Notes: generated by a model not told the origin, from the letters alone. Positions 17,592 to 24,455 are shown, counted from the stretch's first letter. The stretch: 59,518 nucleotides of DNA from Sutterella sp. (GCA_019418235.1 DYCH01000077.1:46099-105616), one strand, 5' to 3'. Numbers and translations: made by a program.

Positions 17592-19271
17592 CTAGAACAC
17601 GTACGACCACATGGCTAGCAAAATCAATTGACCCGTAATGATGCGCAAGAACATGGCTAACGGATAAACCGTCGAATAGGCCACGGGCGCGGCATTCTTT
17701 TCAGACAAGGTGGAGGCGTACGCCAAGATGGGAGAGTTCGTGCCTAAGCCAATCAAGAGACCCACGATGCTGTGGTAATTCAGTTTGCAGAAGACGCGAG
17801 CGATAATCCCCACCACCAATTGCGGCACGATCGTAATACAGCACCCGATCAACGCAAAAAGAAGACCGTTACCCGTAATCAAAGCGTTCACAAACGTATC
17901 GCCTGCCGACAACCCGACACTTGCCAAGAAAAGAGAAATCCCAATTTCTCGACTCATTAAGTTCGAGGACGGCGTCATGTAGGTGGAAAGGTGCAAAGAC
18001 GCCCCATAGCGACCCAACAAAATGGCAATGATCAAGGGGCCACCGGCCATCCCTAATTTAATCGGTGTGGGCATGCCCGGAATGGCTAACGGCAAGGAAC
18101 CAAAAATAATCCCCAAGGTCATCCCCATAAAGATGGCGGCAATATTGGGTTGATCCAAGTGCTTGGCTTGATTGCCTAAACGACCTTCGAGGCGTTTCAC
18201 GGCGTTCTCTGGCCCCACACACTGCAGCACGTCACCCACTTGAATGTGCAAGTTCGGATGCGGGAAAAGTTCAGTACCGGCACGGAACACACGCGTAATG
18301 TTGACGCCATCGGTGGCAGCCAACGACAAACTGTCAATCGTTCTGCCGCTCAAAGATGACAAGGACACCAAGAATTTGGCACGAACCAACGGTGTATGCG
18401 CCGTTTCCAAATTGATGCGTTCATCTTCTTTACCGAAAGCAGCAATGATGTCGCGCTTATGTTCCGGCGTTGAAACCACACGAATCGTATCGCCAACATG
18501 CAAAACGGTCTCCGGCAGCGGACTGATGATTTCGCCCGCATGCATCACACGCGAACAAATGAAGGGACGCGGAATACGTTGGTGCGATTGCGTGATCGTC
18601 ACACCATCCAACAAGTGATTCGTGATGTAGATGTGAAAAGACACCGGCGCTTGACTGATCTCACGCTCTTCAACATCCCAATGACGGTCTTCTTCAGCCA
18701 TGTCGATTTTGAAGATCCAACGCAAGAAAATCGACACGCCGATAATCGCTGTCAAGCCTAAGGGATAAGCACAAGCGTAGGCGGCTGCAATGTCATTGCC
18801 TTGATAGTTCAATTGATTTAAGGCTTCTTGCGTGGCACCAAGACCGGGCGTATTGGTGATAGCGCCGTAGTGGATACCTAAAATCTCAGGTAATGAAACC
18901 GTGTCAGAGAATAAAAAGAACGCACTGATGGTAATGATGATACTGAGCGCCCAACCGAAAACCATGAGGGAATTGAGCACCACCCCTACACTCTTAAACG
19001 ACGAGAAAAAGGAAGGACCGACTTGCAACCCAATAAAGAAAATAAAGATGATGAGGCCAAAATCTTTGGCAAAGGCCAACACGTCCATGTTGACGCGAAC
19101 ACCAAAATAGCTAAAAGCCAACCCCACGAACAAAACAACGATGGAGCCCAAAGAAATGCCAAAGAATTTGATGCGCCCAATCCCCAAACCAATTGAGATG
19201 ATGGCCATGTAAACGAGGACAATATGGGCAATGGAATTAGGGTCTGTTAGAAGAGTATTGAGCCACTGCAT
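17592..19271 (-). CDS. AspT/YidE/YbjL-family transporter with two TrkA-C domains
   Basis: GLQVGPSFF, GAITNTPGLGA, KLGMAGGPL and YSTVYPLAMFLRI motifs; start set at the ATG of MQWL. Confidence 0.88.
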   Translation of the reverse strand: MQWLNTLLTDPNSIAHIVLVYMAIISIGLGIGRIKFFGISLGSIVVLFVGLAFSYFGVRVNMDVLAFAKDFGLIIFIFFIGLQVGPSFFSSFKSVGVVLNSLMVFGWALSIIITISAFFLFSDTVSLPEILGIHYGAITNTPGLGATQEALNQLNYQGNDIAAAYACAYPLGLTAIIGVSIFLRWIFKIDMAEEDRHWDVEEREISQAPVSFHIYITNHLLDGVTITQSHQRIPRPFICSRVMHAGEIISPLPETVLHVGDTIRVVSTPEHKRDIIAAFGKEDERINLETAHTPLVRAKFLVSLSSLSGRTIDSLSLAATDGVNITRVFRAGTELFPHPNLHIQVGDVLQCVGPENAVKRLEGRLGNQAKHLDQPNIAAIFMGMTLGIIFGSLPLAIPGMPTPIKLGMAGGPLIIAILLGRYGASLHLSTYMTPSSNLMSREIGISLFLASVGLSAGDTFVNALITGNGLLFALIGCCITIVPQLVVGIIARVFCKLNYHSIVGLLIGLGTNSPILAYASTLSEKNAAPVAYSTVYPLAMFLRIITGQLILLAMWSYVF

Positions 19272-19431
19272 AGCGGTCACCGAAAAACCAGAACAACAAC
19301 AGATTAAGTGTAGACCCAAGCCACTCAAAAAAATCAAAACTAAGCATAAACCATTAGTCTTTTGAGACCATTGACATCACTTCGAAATTAACAGTTGTGG
19401 CGATTGCCAAAAAAATAGTTGACTACAAAAG

Positions 19432-19483: not shown

Positions 19484-20350
19484 CTATTTACCTAGATTAT
19501 ATTTTTCGGCACCTTCCCAAGCAGCTTCATAGGCGCCCTTGTAAGCCTTCAAAATTGTCTTTGCGGTCTCGGGCGAATTGTAGGCCTTCACCACCTTTTG
19601 ATAGACCTCGTTGTCTTTGTCTTTCGTGCGAGCCACAATGACGTTGACAAGTTGTCCCACATTGGGATTGGTCTTCGGATTAATGTCTTCCGAATAGATA
19701 GCATCCTTCATGGGATCTAACCCGGCCGTCAACGCATTACCACCGTTAATCAACGCCGCCGTGAAGTCAGGCAAAAGGCGTGCCAAAATGCCGGACTCGG
19801 CTTCACGAATCTTGATCTTGACCTTGTATTCCGTGATGTCTAACTTCGTAGGAACGTAGCCCTTAGAAGGATCAACCTTAACAAGACCGGCCTTTTCCAA
19901 AAGCTTAATGGCGCGACCACCATTGGTTAAGTCAGACGGAATGGCAATCACGGCACCATCTTTAATGTCGGCAAGCGACTTGATTTTGTCCTTATTGTTA
20001 TAGATACGAAGCGGCGTAATAATCGTGTCGCCAATCGCAACGATCTTGTAACCGTTACGAGCGATATCATTGGCCAAAAACGCTTTGTGTTGGAAGGCAT
20101 TTAAATCCAAGTCGCCATCGGCTAAAGCACGATTGGGCGTTGCGTAGTCGCTAAACTTCACAAGCTTGACCCGGATATTGTCTTTGGCCAACAATTCGTT
20201 CACGGTTTCCCACTGATCGTTATAGTCACCGACCACACCGACTTTAACCACTTTAACATCAGCCGCTGCAGCTTGACCGACCAAACTTAAGGAAAGACCC
20301 ACCGTCACAAACGTAGCGGCAATGCTCTTAATAAAGGTACGTTTATTCAT
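19484..20350 (-). CDS. metQ: methionine ABC transporter substrate-binding protein (MetQ/NlpA family)
   Basis: FSDYATPNRALADGDLDLNAFQH and IPSDLTNGGRA motifs; signal peptide without a lipobox Cys. Confidence 0.9.
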   Translation of the reverse strand: MNKRTFIKSIAATFVTVGLSLSLVGQAAAADVKVVKVGVVGDYNDQWETVNELLAKDNIRVKLVKFSDYATPNRALADGDLDLNAFQHKAFLANDIARNGYKIVAIGDTIITPLRIYNNKDKIKSLADIKDGAVIAIPSDLTNGGRAIKLLEKAGLVKVDPSKGYVPTKLDITEYKVKIKIREAESGILARLLPDFTAALINGGNALTAGLDPMKDAIYSEDINPKTNPNVGQLVNVIVARTKDKDNEVYQKVVKAYNSPETAKTILKAYKGAYEAAWEGAEKYNLGK

Positions 20351-20378
20351 AATCAATACTCCTTGACGTTTTATGAAA

Positions 20379-21059
20379 TTAGTGTTGGTTTTTGCGAATC
20401 ACCCATTGGCCTACGAATTGGAAGGCACTGATGATGGCAAGAATGATGAGAACGGTTAACCAAATCATGTCGCGATAGCCCATTTGGTAGCCGTAGCGAA
20501 TAGCGAAGTCCCCGATACCACCGGCGCCGATTGCTCCGGCAATCGCCGTAATACCGATGAAGGACACAAAGGTAATCATCGTGACGCGAGTGATGCCTGC
20601 AATGCTTTCTTTGAGGTACACACCGAAGATAATTTGCAAGGGTGAAAAGCCCATGGCAAGACTGGCTTCAATGAGGCCATATTCCAAGTCCGATAAGACC
20701 GATTCCACTTGTCGGGCAAAAAAGGGCACCGTGCCAAAAACCAAAGCCACAAAGGAGCCCGTCACCCCCGATCCTGTCCCAACGAGGAAGCGAGAAAGCG
20801 GAATCAAAAGCACAATCAAAATAATGAAAGGAATGGAGCGGATAATGTCGATCGAGCGATCAAAAAACGTAAACACCCAACGATTTTCGCAAATGGCGCC
20901 CGGTCGCGTGACGACCAACAAAACACCGATCGCAATCCCAATGATCCAAGCCAAAGTACCCGACACTGCCACCATCGTGAAGGTTTGACCCAAACACTCC
21001 CAAAGTTCCGGTGCCAAACGTTCTAAATTCGGAAATAACGTATAAAGAAACGAAGTCAT
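20379..21059 (-). CDS. metI: methionine ABC transporter permease
   Basis: RSIPFIIL, PFFARQVE and GAGGIGDFAIRYGYQ motifs. Confidence 0.92.
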   Translation of the reverse strand: MTSFLYTLFPNLERLAPELWECLGQTFTMVAVSGTLAWIIGIAIGVLLVVTRPGAICENRWVFTFFDRSIDIIRSIPFIILIVLLIPLSRFLVGTGSGVTGSFVALVFGTVPFFARQVESVLSDLEYGLIEASLAMGFSPLQIIFGVYLKESIAGITRVTMITFVSFIGITAIAGAIGAGGIGDFAIRYGYQMGYRDMIWLTVLIILAIISAFQFVGQWVIRKNQH

Positions 21060-22084
21060 TTCAAAACCTCCACACCCACACCACTTGCTAAGAGAAATTG
21101 ACGGGCACTTTCAATGTTGTCCAATGAACCCTTAATACCAACGCCCAATTTGCCGAGCGTCTCACCTTTTAAGAAATCGATGTTACCGTAGACAATGTTG
21201 GATTCGACTTCAAAGCGTTTATAAAGCTCTGTCATGAGTGATTCGCCTGCTACTCGACCACGGTAAGTTAAAAGCCAAACCGTACTGTCTTCTTCAAGTC
21301 CCGGAATCGCCCCGGGCGTCTCTAACAGCTCAAAAAACGTCCCCATGTTGCTCGCCGTTTCGATAAAACTTTTCGTAATCGGTGCTTGAGGGTGACTAAA
21401 GACATCCATGACCGCCCCTTCTTCAACGACTTCACCGGTTTGCATCACGGCCACGCGATCGCAAATTTCTTTAATCACGGCCATTTGGTGCGTGATGATG
21501 ACAAGCGTCAGACCCAACTTGCGATTGACTTCCTTCAATAACCCCAAAATGGATTGTGTCGTTTGCGGATCCAATGCGCTTGTCGCTTCATCGCACAAAA
21601 GCACCTTCGGGTCATTGGCAAGCGCTCGGGCAATAGCCACGCGTTGCTTTTGACCTCCGGAGAGTTGTGACGGATATACATCGCGTTTGTCAGACAAACC
21701 CACTAACTGCAACAAGTTAAGGACTTTTTGAGCGCGTTCTTGTGCGTTAAGCGACGTGAGTTTTAAAGGAAGTTCGATGTTTTCAAACACCGTTCGGGAA
21801 GGCATGAGATTGAAGTGTTGAAAGATCATTCCGATCTGTTGACGTACTTGGCGTAGGGCCTGAGCGGGAAGTTTCGTGAGTTCAGTACCATCCAAAATCA
21901 CTTCGCCTGATGTCGGTCTTTCCAGCAAATTAATGCATCGCACAAGCGTGGATTTACCGGCGCCGGAAAAACCGATAATGCCGTAGATTTCGCCTTTTCG
22001 AATGTGCAAAGAAACATCATTGACGGCTCGCACACACTGATGCTCGACATCAAATTCTTTAACGATATGTTCTAACTTAATCAT
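21056..22084 (-). CDS. metN: methionine ABC transporter ATP-binding protein
   Basis: GFSGAGKSTLVRCINLLE, LLCDEATSALDP and a C-terminal NIL domain. Confidence 0.93.
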   Translation of the reverse strand: MIKLEHIVKEFDVEHQCVRAVNDVSLHIRKGEIYGIIGFSGAGKSTLVRCINLLERPTSGEVILDGTELTKLPAQALRQVRQQIGMIFQHFNLMPSRTVFENIELPLKLTSLNAQERAQKVLNLLQLVGLSDKRDVYPSQLSGGQKQRVAIARALANDPKVLLCDEATSALDPQTTQSILGLLKEVNRKLGLTLVIITHQMAVIKEICDRVAVMQTGEVVEEGAVMDVFSHPQAPITKSFIETASNMGTFFELLETPGAIPGLEEDSTVWLLTYRGRVAGESLMTELYKRFEVESNIVYGNIDFLKGETLGKLGVGIKGSLDNIESARQFLLASGVGVEVLK

Positions 22085-22211
22085 GATGATTGCATCCCTT
22101 TCTCTGCCGATCCGTTAACCCATTTTGAGTGTATTTCCAGATCTCGAATGCAATGGCACCATGCCGGCATTCTCTGCAGTTAAAAATCGATGAATTGTTT
22201 ATTGGGGAGAT

Positions 22212-22253
22212 AAAAAAATCATCACTTGATTAGGACCTTCCAAGTGATGATTT
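22212..22253 (-). terminator. leader (attenuator) terminator upstream of metN
   Basis: 13-bp stem AAATCATCACTTG/CAAGTGATGATTT, 12-nt loop, U7 run, ~125 nt before the metN start. Confidence 0.85.
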
Positions 22254-22281
22254 CTGGCGGAGCAAGGGTGCTCCGAAGGTC

Positions 22282-22383
22282 TTAGAGCACCATCATCATG
22301 TGACACATTCGCATTTCCATAGCAAAAGCCGTCGCGCTTAAATGAAGCGACGTTTTTTGCGAAATGGTGAATGCGTTTTGCAT
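22282..22383 (-). CDS. putative Met-rich leader peptide MQNAFTISQKTSLHLSATAFAMEMRMCHMMMVL
   Basis: AAAGGG 9 nt before ATG 22383; 6 Met and 1 Cys in the last 12 codons; stop 28 nt before the terminator. Confidence 0.7.
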   Translation of the reverse strand: MQNAFTISQKTSLHLSATAFAMEMRMCHMMMVL

Positions 22384-22612
22384 CAATGACAACCCTTTGT
22401 CTAAGAAAGAAAATGCAGACCTCTCAATGAGGCGTGTTTTTAGATTATCAAATTTTTTCGCTTTGAAAAGCGCCAAGTTTAAGAATCATAGGTGATATTG
22501 CTTAAGTCAATAATTTATCTGTTAATGATATTTCCAAAAAGTTAAAGGAATTTACAGTGCTTTTATTGATAGTTACGCGCTTTTAAAGAATGAACAAAGC
22601 AACAAAGAAGTT

Positions 22613-22641
22613 AAAAAAGAGGTCCTTCAACTAAGAACCTC
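22613..22641 (-). terminator. terminator after the GNAT gene
   Basis: Minus-strand GAGGTTCTT/AAGGACCTC stem plus TTTTTT. Confidence 0.65.
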
Positions 22642-22660: not shown

Positions 22661-23167
22661 TTATTTTGTTAAATTGCTGTACTTGCAATGACACTCCCAC
22701 GTTTCGTGAAACATTTCCCTTGTGGTGTCCCATTCGTTATAAAATTCACTTTCTGTCTTACAAAAACCAAACTTTGAATAGAGATGTCGAGCTGGTTTCA
22801 AAATATCAAGAGTACCTAAAATAATATGCGAATACCCCTTTTCTTTACAAAACGCCATTGCAATTTCTAATAATTTTGAACCTAATCCCTGTCCCTGAAA
22901 ATCCGCATCAACCCCAAACCAACGCAATTGTGCTTGATCATTACCTCTCCTGATAATAGCGATATCCCCCACAATATTTCCTTTGCATTCTGCTATCCAC
23001 ATTTGACTACCTTCCAAATCATTGTAAAGTTCAGCCATTCCAGACAACATCTCTTTTTCATAGAAGCCATTAAAACCATACATTTTCTTGTACAGTTGAT
23101 ATTGAAAGTAGCAAACCTTACTGGGATCACCAGGTTCATAAGTACGAATTACAACATTGTTTTCCAT
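22661..23167 (-). CDS. GNAT-family N-acetyltransferase
   Basis: QLRWFGVDADFQGQGLGSKLL acetyl-CoA motif A and ARHLYSKFGF motif B. Confidence 0.9.
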   Translation of the reverse strand: MENNVVIRTYEPGDPSKVCYFQYQLYKKMYGFNGFYEKEMLSGMAELYNDLEGSQMWIAECKGNIVGDIAIIRRGNDQAQLRWFGVDADFQGQGLGSKLLEIAMAFCKEKGYSHIILGTLDILKPARHLYSKFGFCKTESEFYNEWDTTREMFHETWECHCKYSNLTK

Positions 23168-23616
23168 GATAACTTCTCTCCCTTGTCATTGTCTCGCAAA
23201 GTCTCTTCAATAAACGACATTGCCTCACAAAGTTTTTCGAACGTCTCTTGATCAAGATATTTGAGTTTATCTTGAATCTGTTGTGTACCATGCATGTCAA
23301 TTTTCAAAGCTTCGTTTTCTCCCCTTGTTGTCAAAACAATCGTTTTCAGCCCCTTACTTCCAACAACGAGTCTCCTCGTTAAGAAACCATCTTTCTCAAA
23401 TTTTCGAATAATCCGACTCACGTACCCCTTATCCATCTTCAGATGCTCGCATAGATCCGTTGCCGTAATATTGGGACAAAGATAAACCTCAAACAGTACT
23501 CTTGACTCAGGCCACGCTAACTCTGTCCCTAAATAGTCTTTGTTCATTACCTCTAACCAAACAGTGTAGTAGCGATTAAAAGAACGTATCTTTTTGATTA
23601 GACAATCTCTCATCAT
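23149..23616 (-). CDS. MarR-family transcriptional regulator
   Basis: IRSFNRYYT and MDKGYVSRII winged-helix motif; overlaps the GNAT start. Confidence 0.88.
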   Translation of the reverse strand: MMRDCLIKKIRSFNRYYTVWLEVMNKDYLGTELAWPESRVLFEVYLCPNITATDLCEHLKMDKGYVSRIIRKFEKDGFLTRRLVVGSKGLKTIVLTTRGENEALKIDMHGTQQIQDKLKYLDQETFEKLCEAMSFIEETLRDNDKGEKLSWKTML

Positions 23617-23786: not shown

Positions 23787-24455
23787 TTATTTTGTCAAAT
23801 AGTCGCGTCGCACCCAAGCCCACAACAGTGCAATCAGCAAAATGGCGTAGCACACACAAGCCAACATGCAACACTCAGCCATGTCCATGAACTTCCATTG
23901 CGGAATCAAGTACCAACCATCCGTGGATTGATAAAGTTCAATGAACCAGCGTTGAAGGTCGGATAATTCCACGCCGGGTGCTACGACTGGTGCATCGTAA
24001 CCACAGTCCCCCGTGGGCTTAAACCAATCCGGTGCCCACTTGTCTAACGGAAGACCAAAGTGGTATTTCGCATCCGTTGAGCAGCCTTGAAGACCGAACA
24101 TTGCCATCGGGTCATCCGAGTGCACTGCATCGTGAATCTTGATCAATTTCCACGAGCAAAGCATCGTGTAAATCAAACCATAGAGGAAGATACCCACGCC
24201 GGCAATCTTGCCCCAAATCCATTGCGGTTTAATCGCCACAATGAATGCACCCAAGGCCATCACTAAATTGCCGTAACGGATATAGACGCATTGCTCACAA
24301 GGCAGCATGTGCATCCAGTCTTGGAACACGTAGTGGGCAATCAACACCAAAAGAACAGAGGTAATCGCAAAGAGTAACCACGGCTCTCGCGTGTCTTGCC
24401 ACCGAGCCAATGTGTTCATCGGCTCGGTTTTGAAATCTTTAAAAAAGCCTTTCAT
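23787..24455 (-). CDS. dsbI: DsbI, copy 2
   Basis: Protein identical to copy 1 except two C-terminal residues (RRDYL vs KRDFL). Confidence 0.9.
   Translation of the reverse strand: MKGFFKDFKTEPMNTLARWQDTREPWLLFAITSVLLVLIAHYVFQDWMHMLPCEQCVYIRYGNLVMALGAFIVAIKPQWIWGKIAGVGIFLYGLIYTMLCSWKLIKIHDAVHSDDPMAMFGLQGCSTDAKYHFGLPLDKWAPDWFKPTGDCGYDAPVVAPGVELSDLQRWFIELYQSTDGWYLIPQWKFMDMAECCMLACVCYAILLIALLWAWVRRDYLTK

Follow-up and report, generated by a model that had tools for sequence, protein, structure and literature searches.

Leader-peptide attenuators following the Yanofsky model are textbook regulators of the trp, his, leu, thr, pheA and ilv operons of Proteobacteria, where the amino acids concerned are tryptophan, histidine, leucine, threonine, phenylalanine and isoleucine/valine; a comparative survey of such attenuators was reportedly given by Vitreschak et al. 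in 2004. Two further leader peptides, TnaC and SpeFL, are ligand-dependent arrest peptides that sense tryptophan and ornithine, respectively. Here we describe a candidate attenuator for methionine, a short leader open reading frame (ORF) followed by a terminator-like hairpin upstream of the methionine importer operon metNIQ. It lies on the minus strand of a 59,518-nucleotide stretch of DNA from Sutterella sp. (GCA_019418235.1 DYCH01000077.1:46099-105616), referred to below as the window and numbered from its first letter.

The nearest described counterpart is a leader peptide, 'metL', located upstream of metNIQ in Streptomyces lividans TK24 and, according to excerpts of the report, predicted from transcript maps only (PMC8079986). 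For Actinobacteria in general, a comparative study available in part found no RNA element for methionine operons and describes cysteine (Cys) leader peptides without terminators (PMC1262725), while a translational poly-Cys attenuator with a leaderless short ORF is described for mycobacteria in the accessible portion of a preprint (bioRxiv 10.1101/834739). One more paper makes no mention of a methionine leader in its accessible part (PMC2965389). A full-text literature search, with subscription journals largely outside its reach, returned no tested attenuator based on methionine (Met) codons and only one prediction, untested, the Streptomyces one. The novelty suggested by an earlier interpretation of the window made from the DNA alone (hereafter the sequence-only reading) would thus hold for tested cases, but not for the idea of a methionine leader before metNIQ, already put forward for S. 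lividans TK24 (PMC8079986, as excerpted).

Results

A methionine-rich reading frame upstream of metNIQ

The components first noticed on the minus strand (a Shine-Dalgarno (SD)-like AAAGGG, an ATG at 22383 and a Met-rich frame of 33 amino acids ahead of metNIQ) were all recovered when the coordinates were re-checked. The stop codon occupies 22284-22282, the C-terminus reads MEMRMCHMMMVL*, the last 12 codons comprise six Met and one Cys, and metN starts 197 nt past the leader stop codon. In a six-frame scan of the 1.87-Mb genome this was the sole stop-delimited frame with six ATG within its last 12 codons (19 frames had at least four), and at the genome's methionine frequency of 2.58% the binomial probability of the cluster is 2.4e-7. 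The leaders of relatives carry four to six Met across the equivalent span of 12 codons.

The element is known from 69 loci representing 31 unique cores. Two of these cores are truncated at contig ends, and the analysis of the reading frame is based on the 29 full copies. Frame 0 is open in all 29, from an SD-preceded ATG to the conserved stop codon, as compared with 11 of 29 for frame +1 and five for frame +2. The distance between the ATG and the conserved motif is 69, 72, 75 or 78 nt, that is, it changes in steps of 3 nt, and a purine run of the AGG(A/G/T) type is found at most 16 nt before the ATG in 28 full copies, with a GAGG placed further upstream in the remaining one (L017). The full copies encode 24 distinct full-length leader peptides with a common C-terminus and with N-terminal two-thirds that differ almost wholly between lineages. 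The C-terminal pattern, M-R-M-C-(H/M)-M-(M/T)-M-V-L-stop, is present in 30 of the 31 unique cores; the exception (L015) is one codon shorter, lacking the (H/M) codon, and has M-R repeated upstream. Synonymous changes occur at the Cys (UGU/UGC) and Thr (ACG/ACA) codons. Constant C-terminal codons combined with an N-terminus that varies in steps of three make the pattern that of a leader peptide, unlike that of a riboswitch or of a conserved small protein. Overall, selection on the leader ORF as a reading frame is well supported by the comparison of sequences, and the idea of a translated Met-codon leader before metNIQ gains support accordingly, the frame, the SD sequence and the C-terminal codons being kept in 29 of 29 full copies.

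Distribution and linkage to one metN paralogue

All known copies belong to a single genus (CAG-521 / Ca. Aphodousia), and the window's own genome has no second copy. Among 60 related genomes searched at the DNA level, the leader was found in 18 of the 23 that belong to the genus; the 37 from outside it yielded no copy. Of 151 genomes of the family, a covariance model of the core matched 11. These all belong to the genus, and 25 other genera gave no match. When 185,579 species were scanned for the pattern, each represented by one genome, 18 stretches were retrieved, all titled uncultured Sutterella, Ca. Aphodousia or uncultured Burkholderiaceae, and a metagenome pattern scan added 32 further stretches. 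One copy of the leader peptide is on public record as a hypothetical protein of Sutterella sp. CAG:521.

Two metN paralogues, 49-51% identical to each other, are present in most genomes of the genus, and the element always stands upstream of the same one: all 19 genus genomes with this paralogue carry it. Among the five genus genomes without the element, four (G005, G008, G009 and G015) have the other paralogue only, and one (G014, 68% complete) gave no match. No Met-rich leader was found at the second metN of the window's own genome. This gene (G000:C40:24945-25970; L045), which is 49% identical to the first, is preceded by a tRNA gene and a terminator-like hairpin. The search for Met-rich leaders before other metN genes (13 regions of relatives inspected, and 26 regions from 22 genomes of the order scanned) yielded one candidate only, in genome G059. 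This genome, 0.9 Mb in size and from the same order, has a short ORF MAFFARVMCMC*, without a clear SD sequence, some 100 nt ahead of a metN homologue (L053, G059:C1:442020-442900, minus strand); the Met-Cys alternation of this ORF recalls the metL peptide of S. lividans, as given in the excerpted report (PMC8079986). The Met-rich upstream frames and covarying helices for which the sequence-only reading had proposed to search before metN in relatives exist, but they were found in one genus only.

The terminator-like hairpin and the pairing of its loop

The hairpin that follows the leader, here called T, pairs 22255-22241 with 22228-22214 (-16.6 kcal/mol) and is followed by U7 at 22218-22212. 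With a loop longer than 8 nt, it escaped a simple terminator scan. The hairpin and its U7 agree with the earlier description of a 13-bp terminator at 22253-22212, whereas the extent does not, the measured stem having 15 bp and reaching from 22255. Compensatory changes are seen at 7 of 12 stem pairs across 14 lineages.

The segment immediately behind the leader stop codon (X1, GACCUUCGGAG, 22281-22271) can pair at 10 of 11 positions with CUUGGAAGGUC (22244-22234; X2), giving a duplex of -14.0 kcal/mol. This pairing, noticed from the start, is borne out by comparison: X1 is the best upstream partner of the T loop in all 12 lineages compared (-11.9 to -13.2 kcal/mol), and its strength is equalled by only 2-15 of 300 shuffled loops per lineage. 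In all 31 unique cores, as well as in all 32 stretches added by the metagenome scan, X1 (the first 8-11 nt behind the stop codon) and GGAAGGUC (X2) never change, while the T stem and the 3' half of the loop vary. In every copy X1 begins 0-1 nt past the stop codon. A ribosome at a stop codon has a footprint that covers the nucleotides just downstream, so a terminating ribosome must cover X1.

Two competing hairpins proposed earlier, HA (GGUGCUC with GAGCACC) and HB (CGGAGCA with UGCUCCG), were both found and are mutually exclusive. HB is present in every minimum free energy (MFE) fold; five of its six pairs are invariant, the basal pair is broken in one of 11 sequences, and the loop letters vary. 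The HA duplex has -11.4 kcal/mol, and its sole variant, an A to G change in L014, retains the pair as G-U; HA is thus without compensatory change and remains unproven. When folding was restricted to transcripts that end before the 3' arm of T, X1:X2 together with HB formed the MFE structure both without a ribosome and with a ribosome at codon 24, 26, 29, 30 or 31. With the ribosome at the stop codon X1:X2 was absent from the MFE structure.

The entire leader ORF is contained in a long hairpin, in which the 5' untranslated region, the start codon and the second codon are paired with the Cys-Met codons, the last codons and the stop codon, the SD sequence lying in an internal loop. The window's leader folds at z = -6.6 relative to dinucleotide shuffles. 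All 16 lineage representatives folded share this architecture, a paired AUG included, with z from -2.9 to -8.2, despite the differing sequence that it encloses. These results come from folds of the individual sequences, as RNAalifold on a MAFFT alignment missed the long hairpin, the variable part of which cannot be aligned. A small hairpin probably marks the 5' end of the leader transcript or its vicinity. Relatives have a hairpin at the equivalent position with different stem letters, and in the largest of the clades described below (the main clade) it directly follows a conserved promoter-like pair, TTGAAN-17-TAACCT (both by eye). Conservation of the leader region begins at TTGACT (22510-22505). 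Contigs of related strains match up to 22510 and resume at 22613, the roughly 100 nt between (22511-22612) being of equal length and diverged in sequence.

A further pairing that had been suggested as an antiterminator, between the Met-codon run UGAUGAU (22298-22292) and AUCAUCA in the 5' arm of T (22251-22245), was rejected as being at chance level. Although this arm has no better upstream partner than the Met codons in 11 of 12 lineages, equally good pairing is reached by 64-251 of 300 shuffled arms, and L005 and L006 have a mismatch in the pairing.

Table 1. Features of the leader and its operon (coordinates are those of the window)
Feature	Coordinates	Strand	Remarks
Leader ORF, 33 codons + UAA, MQNAFTISQKTSLHLSATAFAMEMRMCHMMMVL*	22282..22383	minus	frame open in 29/29 full copies
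Shine-Dalgarno-like AAAGGG of leader ORF	22393..22398	minus	10 nt before ATG
Regulatory codon cluster: Met codons 22, 24, 26, 29, 30, 31; Cys codon 27	22285..22320	minus
X1, post-stop segment, core 22281-22275	22271..22281	minus	complementary to T loop
X2, CUUG (top of T 5' arm) + GAAGGUC (5' half of T loop)	22234..22244	minus	X1 partner
T, 15-bp hairpin, 12-nt loop, U7	22212..22255	minus	intrinsic terminator by sequence features
HA, last codons (22291-22285) with 22273-22267	22267..22291	minus	X1 in loop
HB, 22275-22269 with 22264-22258	22258..22275	minus
Long hairpin spanning entire leader ORF	22281..22405	minus
Small 5' hairpin, GCCUC-AUUGA-GAGGU	22419..22433	minus	probably at or near leader transcript 5' end
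Structured spacer from T to metN, about 127-128 nt	22085..22211	minus	closing helix beside metN SD (AAGGGA, ~22100-22095)
metN (22084-21056), metI (21059-20379), metQ (20356-19484)	19484..22084	minus	best NCBIfam matches

The operon and its genomic context

The best NCBIfam matches of the three operon genes are MetN (1.2e-122), MetI (9.2e-50) and MetQ (6.1e-56); all of them are below the curated cut-offs, and the assignments are accordingly made at the level of families. The bacterium probably cannot make methionine and would be a methionine auxotroph, judging by its gene content: neither metE nor metH gave a match in the 98.85%-complete genome, and the control searches did detect them. With no methionine synthase found in the genome, import is probably the only source of methionine for the cell. 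Of the usual regulators of metNIQ named by the sequence-only reading (MetJ, S-adenosylmethionine (SAM) riboswitches and T-box riboswitches), none came to light. A search for MetJ (PF01340), the customary repressor of enterobacteria, in the same genome gave no match, its control being found in E. coli (Met boxes were not searched for), and no Rfam family, SAM and T-box models included, matched with E <1 between 21800 and 22900 of the window, nor was anything relevant found in five sister loci. The six Rfam hits in that part of the window, at E 1.3-9.1, were to eukaryotic or archaeal snoRNAs, a microRNA and CyaR. A sub-threshold match to SAM_alpha (SAM-II) exists elsewhere in the genome (G000:C41:1332-1408, minus strand; 25.6 bits vs a gathering threshold of 36, E = 8.2e-4).

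A promoter of its own for metN downstream of 22212, which had been named as a reason to abandon attenuation, was looked for, and the site scan found no promoter-like site on the minus strand between T and metN. The spacer contains a hairpin, GAAUGC...GCAUUC, with the same layout in L006 despite sequence change, and its structure (22211-22085) could constitute a second layer of control.

As to the neighbourhood, a YidE/YbjL-family transporter gene (17592-19337, minus strand) directly follows metQ. Upstream of the leader, genes for a GNAT acetyltransferase (22661-23167), a MarR-like regulator (23149-23616) and a DsbI-like oxidoreductase (23787-24455) lie on the minus strand, the GNAT gene having its own terminator-like hairpin at 22646-22614.

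Discussion

A possible mechanism

We lean towards reading the element as a ribosome-mediated attenuator, in which the 33-codon leader reads the supply of methionyl-tRNA and sets transcription into metNIQ. The parts of this reading differ in strength: there is good support for the leader peptide and for its link to metNIQ, and termination at T in the window's clade is likely.

The steps might be as follows. With methionine plentiful, the first ribosome would load while the start codon is still unpaired and reach the stop codon, where its footprint would hide X1 while RNA polymerase makes T; the loop being free, T would close and transcription would stop at the U tract. With Met-tRNA scarce, the ribosome would wait at the Met codons, 3-12 codons before the stop, leaving X1 bare. 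The exposed X1 would pair with X2 once the loop emerges, stacked on HB, and would trap the 5' arm of T in a closed loop. T could then form only as a strained pseudoknot or after the melting of X1:X2, which would be too slow to prevent read-through into metNIQ. Since an untranslated leader likewise leaves X1 bare, failure of initiation (no Met-tRNAfMet) would also lead to read-through. For later ribosomes the long hairpin would shut the start codon, leaving sensing to the first, polymerase-coupled ribosome only.

This logic has a particular bearing on methionine. Shortage of methionine threatens initiation as well, so that the classical rule by which the absence of translation means termination would be counter-productive here. 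The layout of the element suggests a way round the problem that methionine initiates translation.

Observations against attenuation and other explanations

Several observations weigh against an attenuator of this kind. In equilibrium folding, the pair probability of T was 0.95-0.96 without a ribosome and at all 15 masked ribosome positions from codon 20 to the stop codon (nested folding), so there is no equilibrium switch of the trp type. An equilibrium exchange of terminator and antiterminator was rejected on this ground, as masking never lowered the pair probability of T, and the earlier proposal of a trp-type antiterminator freed by stalling finds no support in these folds. Of the 15 nt in the 5' arm of T, X1:X2 takes up just the top 4; as modelled, it would coexist with the T stem as a pseudoknot. 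Such a pseudoknot with an intact stem may be sterically possible, which makes the antitermination step a kinetic argument. X1 and X2 never vary, and their pairing is therefore without covariation. On the transcript side, the scan for promoter-like sites did not place the leader promoter with confidence, and the RNA evidence amounts to one low-depth contig from a library possibly containing DNA. This 158-nt contig from an oligo-dT metatranscriptome covers 22260-22415 only, out of 801 nt compared (three other runs are probably DNA), and hints weakly at the presence of the leader as RNA. At the peptide level, residues other than Met (R, C, V and L) show the same invariance as the Met codons, for which a codon-counting model accounts only through overlapping RNA pairings. 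Finally, a U6-7 tract after T is restricted to the window's clade, which makes up 6 of the 31 unique cores, the other 25 having no clean U tract; termination at T is thus not the conserved output.

This last point leads to the sister clades. In the main clade (21 unique cores) T is followed by a U/C-rich tail, while the third, L007 clade (four unique cores) has neither a U tract nor the docking segment of the main clade. That segment, 44-59 nt downstream, shows 7-11 nt of complementarity to the loop's 3' half in 21 of 21 main-clade cores. In the resulting helix two pairs are changed on both sides (compensatory AU/UA, in an alignment of 11 sequences), and the score of the whole structure was reached by none of 500 shuffles. 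Still in the main clade (L009-L019, e.g. L009:1342-1558, minus strand), a helix GUCACACC/GGUGUGAC closes beside the metN SD sequence, to which a CCUUC tract after T is complementary. By eye, X1 (CCUUCGG) in the sister clades is also complementary to the metN SD region CCGAAGG, and a G-poor, C-rich tract follows T in all clades. The loop of T, pairing upstream with X1 and, in the main clade, downstream, therefore looks like a docking hub through which the sensor is joined to different outputs. An attenuator of the terminator type, as it had been put forward for the window, agrees with the hairpin and U7 of the window's clade, but 25 of the 31 unique copies are wired to other downstream structures.

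These findings are what an alternative in terms of post-transcriptional control would draw on, according to which the element acts mainly on translation initiation, Rho or RNA decay and the U7 hairpin is a leaky or constitutive stop that sets a basal level. Conserved structure in clades without a clean U tract reaches the metN SD sequence, the 127-nt spacer of the window has structure of its own, including a helix that closes beside the SD sequence, the C-rich tract is common to all clades, and a translational Cys attenuator is described for mycobacteria (bioRxiv 10.1101/834739, accessible portion). However, the hairpin of the window has every sequence feature of an intrinsic terminator, and masking or freeing the docking segment changed the predicted accessibility of the SD sequence by no more than 0.06 in 12 of 12 sequences, all from sister clades, a result that says little either way. 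We regard this explanation as unlikely.

The invariant R, C, V and L residues raise another option, in which the nascent peptide itself is the sensor: MRMC.M.MVL-stop would arrest the ribosome near the stop codon in the presence of free methionine or SAM, covering X1 and causing termination, and at low ligand fast release would free X1. The output logic would be the same as that of attenuation. The stop codon always stands directly behind these residues, the Cys is kept through its synonymous change, and a Met/Cys/Arg-rich C-terminus recurs in the metL peptide predicted in S. lividans, as far as the excerpts describe it (PMC8079986). Yet the same nucleotides take part in conserved pairings (the long hairpin and HA), which is enough to explain their invariance, and peptide positions -6 (H/M) and -4 (M/T) differ between clades; likeness to known arrest peptides did not come up, no search aimed at it having been made. 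A sensing peptide seems to us quite improbable.

The stability of the leader fold, in the window as in the 16 lineages, the pairing of the start codon in the folded form and the RNA-library contig that covers the leader alone would all suit a structured non-coding RNA, be it a riboswitch or a trans-acting small RNA ending at the U7 hairpin, with an incidental ORF. We consider this very unlikely, given that the frame, the lengths changing in steps of 3 and the SD sequence are conserved across the full copies, that no Rfam model matched, and that the variable part of the hairpin on the 5' side has no conserved internal-loop letters except the SD sequence. A small protein gene with its own strong terminator and a separately transcribed metN, as the public annotation of one peptide copy as a hypothetical protein might suggest, is scarcely credible in view of the unconserved N-terminal two-thirds, the restriction of the element to one metN paralogue and the lack of a promoter-like site between the hairpin and metN in the site scan.

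Implications

If attenuation by methionyl-tRNA supply is retained for the window, the sister clades allow a broader and distinctly more speculative suggestion: the element may be a sensor of the initiator amino acid, in which a stop-parked ribosome alone would permit termination, slow elongation at Met codons and failed initiation would both switch the importer on, and docking of X1 onto the loop of a static hairpin would relay the signal, one sensor being combined with three output platforms within one genus. These would be the intrinsic terminator, a loop-to-downstream pseudoknot relaying towards the metN SD sequence, and the form of the third clade, an exchange that would resemble the swapping of expression platforms by riboswitch aptamers. 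We offer it tentatively.

The comparative support for the element is strong (69 loci with 24 distinct full-length leader peptides). A common uncultured gut bacterium, probably auxotrophic for methionine, appears to tune its methionine importer by tRNA charging, and its relatives provide a natural series of one sensor joined to different output modules. At about 220 nt, the element is small enough for reporter and in vitro tests.

Comparison with described systems

The S. lividans metL leader, like the element described here, is a short ORF before metNIQ with a Met/Cys/Arg-rich C-terminus, interpreted in terms of methionine-dependent attenuation. It differs in being leaderless, with 29 amino acids and two Met and three Cys in the last 10 residues, and in belonging to another phylum; according to the excerpts its authors found no Rho-independent terminator, and the likeness is one of description only (all from PMC8079986, as excerpted). 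The mycobacterial poly-Cys and actinobacterial Cys leaders share with our element an upstream ORF that is rich in codons for sulfur-containing amino acids and would sense tRNA charging, a very stable leader duplex and the absence of a classical terminator/antiterminator pair, as far as the partial texts go (bioRxiv 10.1101/834739; PMC1262725). In these systems, by the same partial sources, the codon tract is paired directly with the SD region of the gene that follows, control being translational (bioRxiv 10.1101/834739; PMC1262725), whereas the window's clade has an intrinsic terminator, and its sensor segment is placed behind the stop codon.

With TnaC and SpeFL the element has in common a conserved C-terminal peptide that ends at the stop codon, and a downstream outcome that would be decided by the position of the ribosome at this codon. 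Unlike in these two, the density of Met codons points to sensing of tRNA rather than to ligand-dependent arrest.

Attenuators of the trp type provide the closest parallel in layout: a short SD-preceded leader ORF with the cognate codons near its 3' end, a terminating ribosome that covers the next pairing segment, and an intrinsic terminator before the first gene. The differences lie in the amino acid, methionine being the starter of every protein, and in the target, which is an importer instead of a biosynthetic operon. The freed segment would pair with the loop and with just the top 4 nt of the arm, with no nested antiterminator; the whole leader ORF forms a long hairpin that buries its own start codon; and without translation the leader is predicted to give read-through instead of super-attenuation. 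What would be new relative to the known attenuators is methionine as the amino acid sensed, loop docking in place of a nested antiterminator, and an ORF hairpin that closes on itself.

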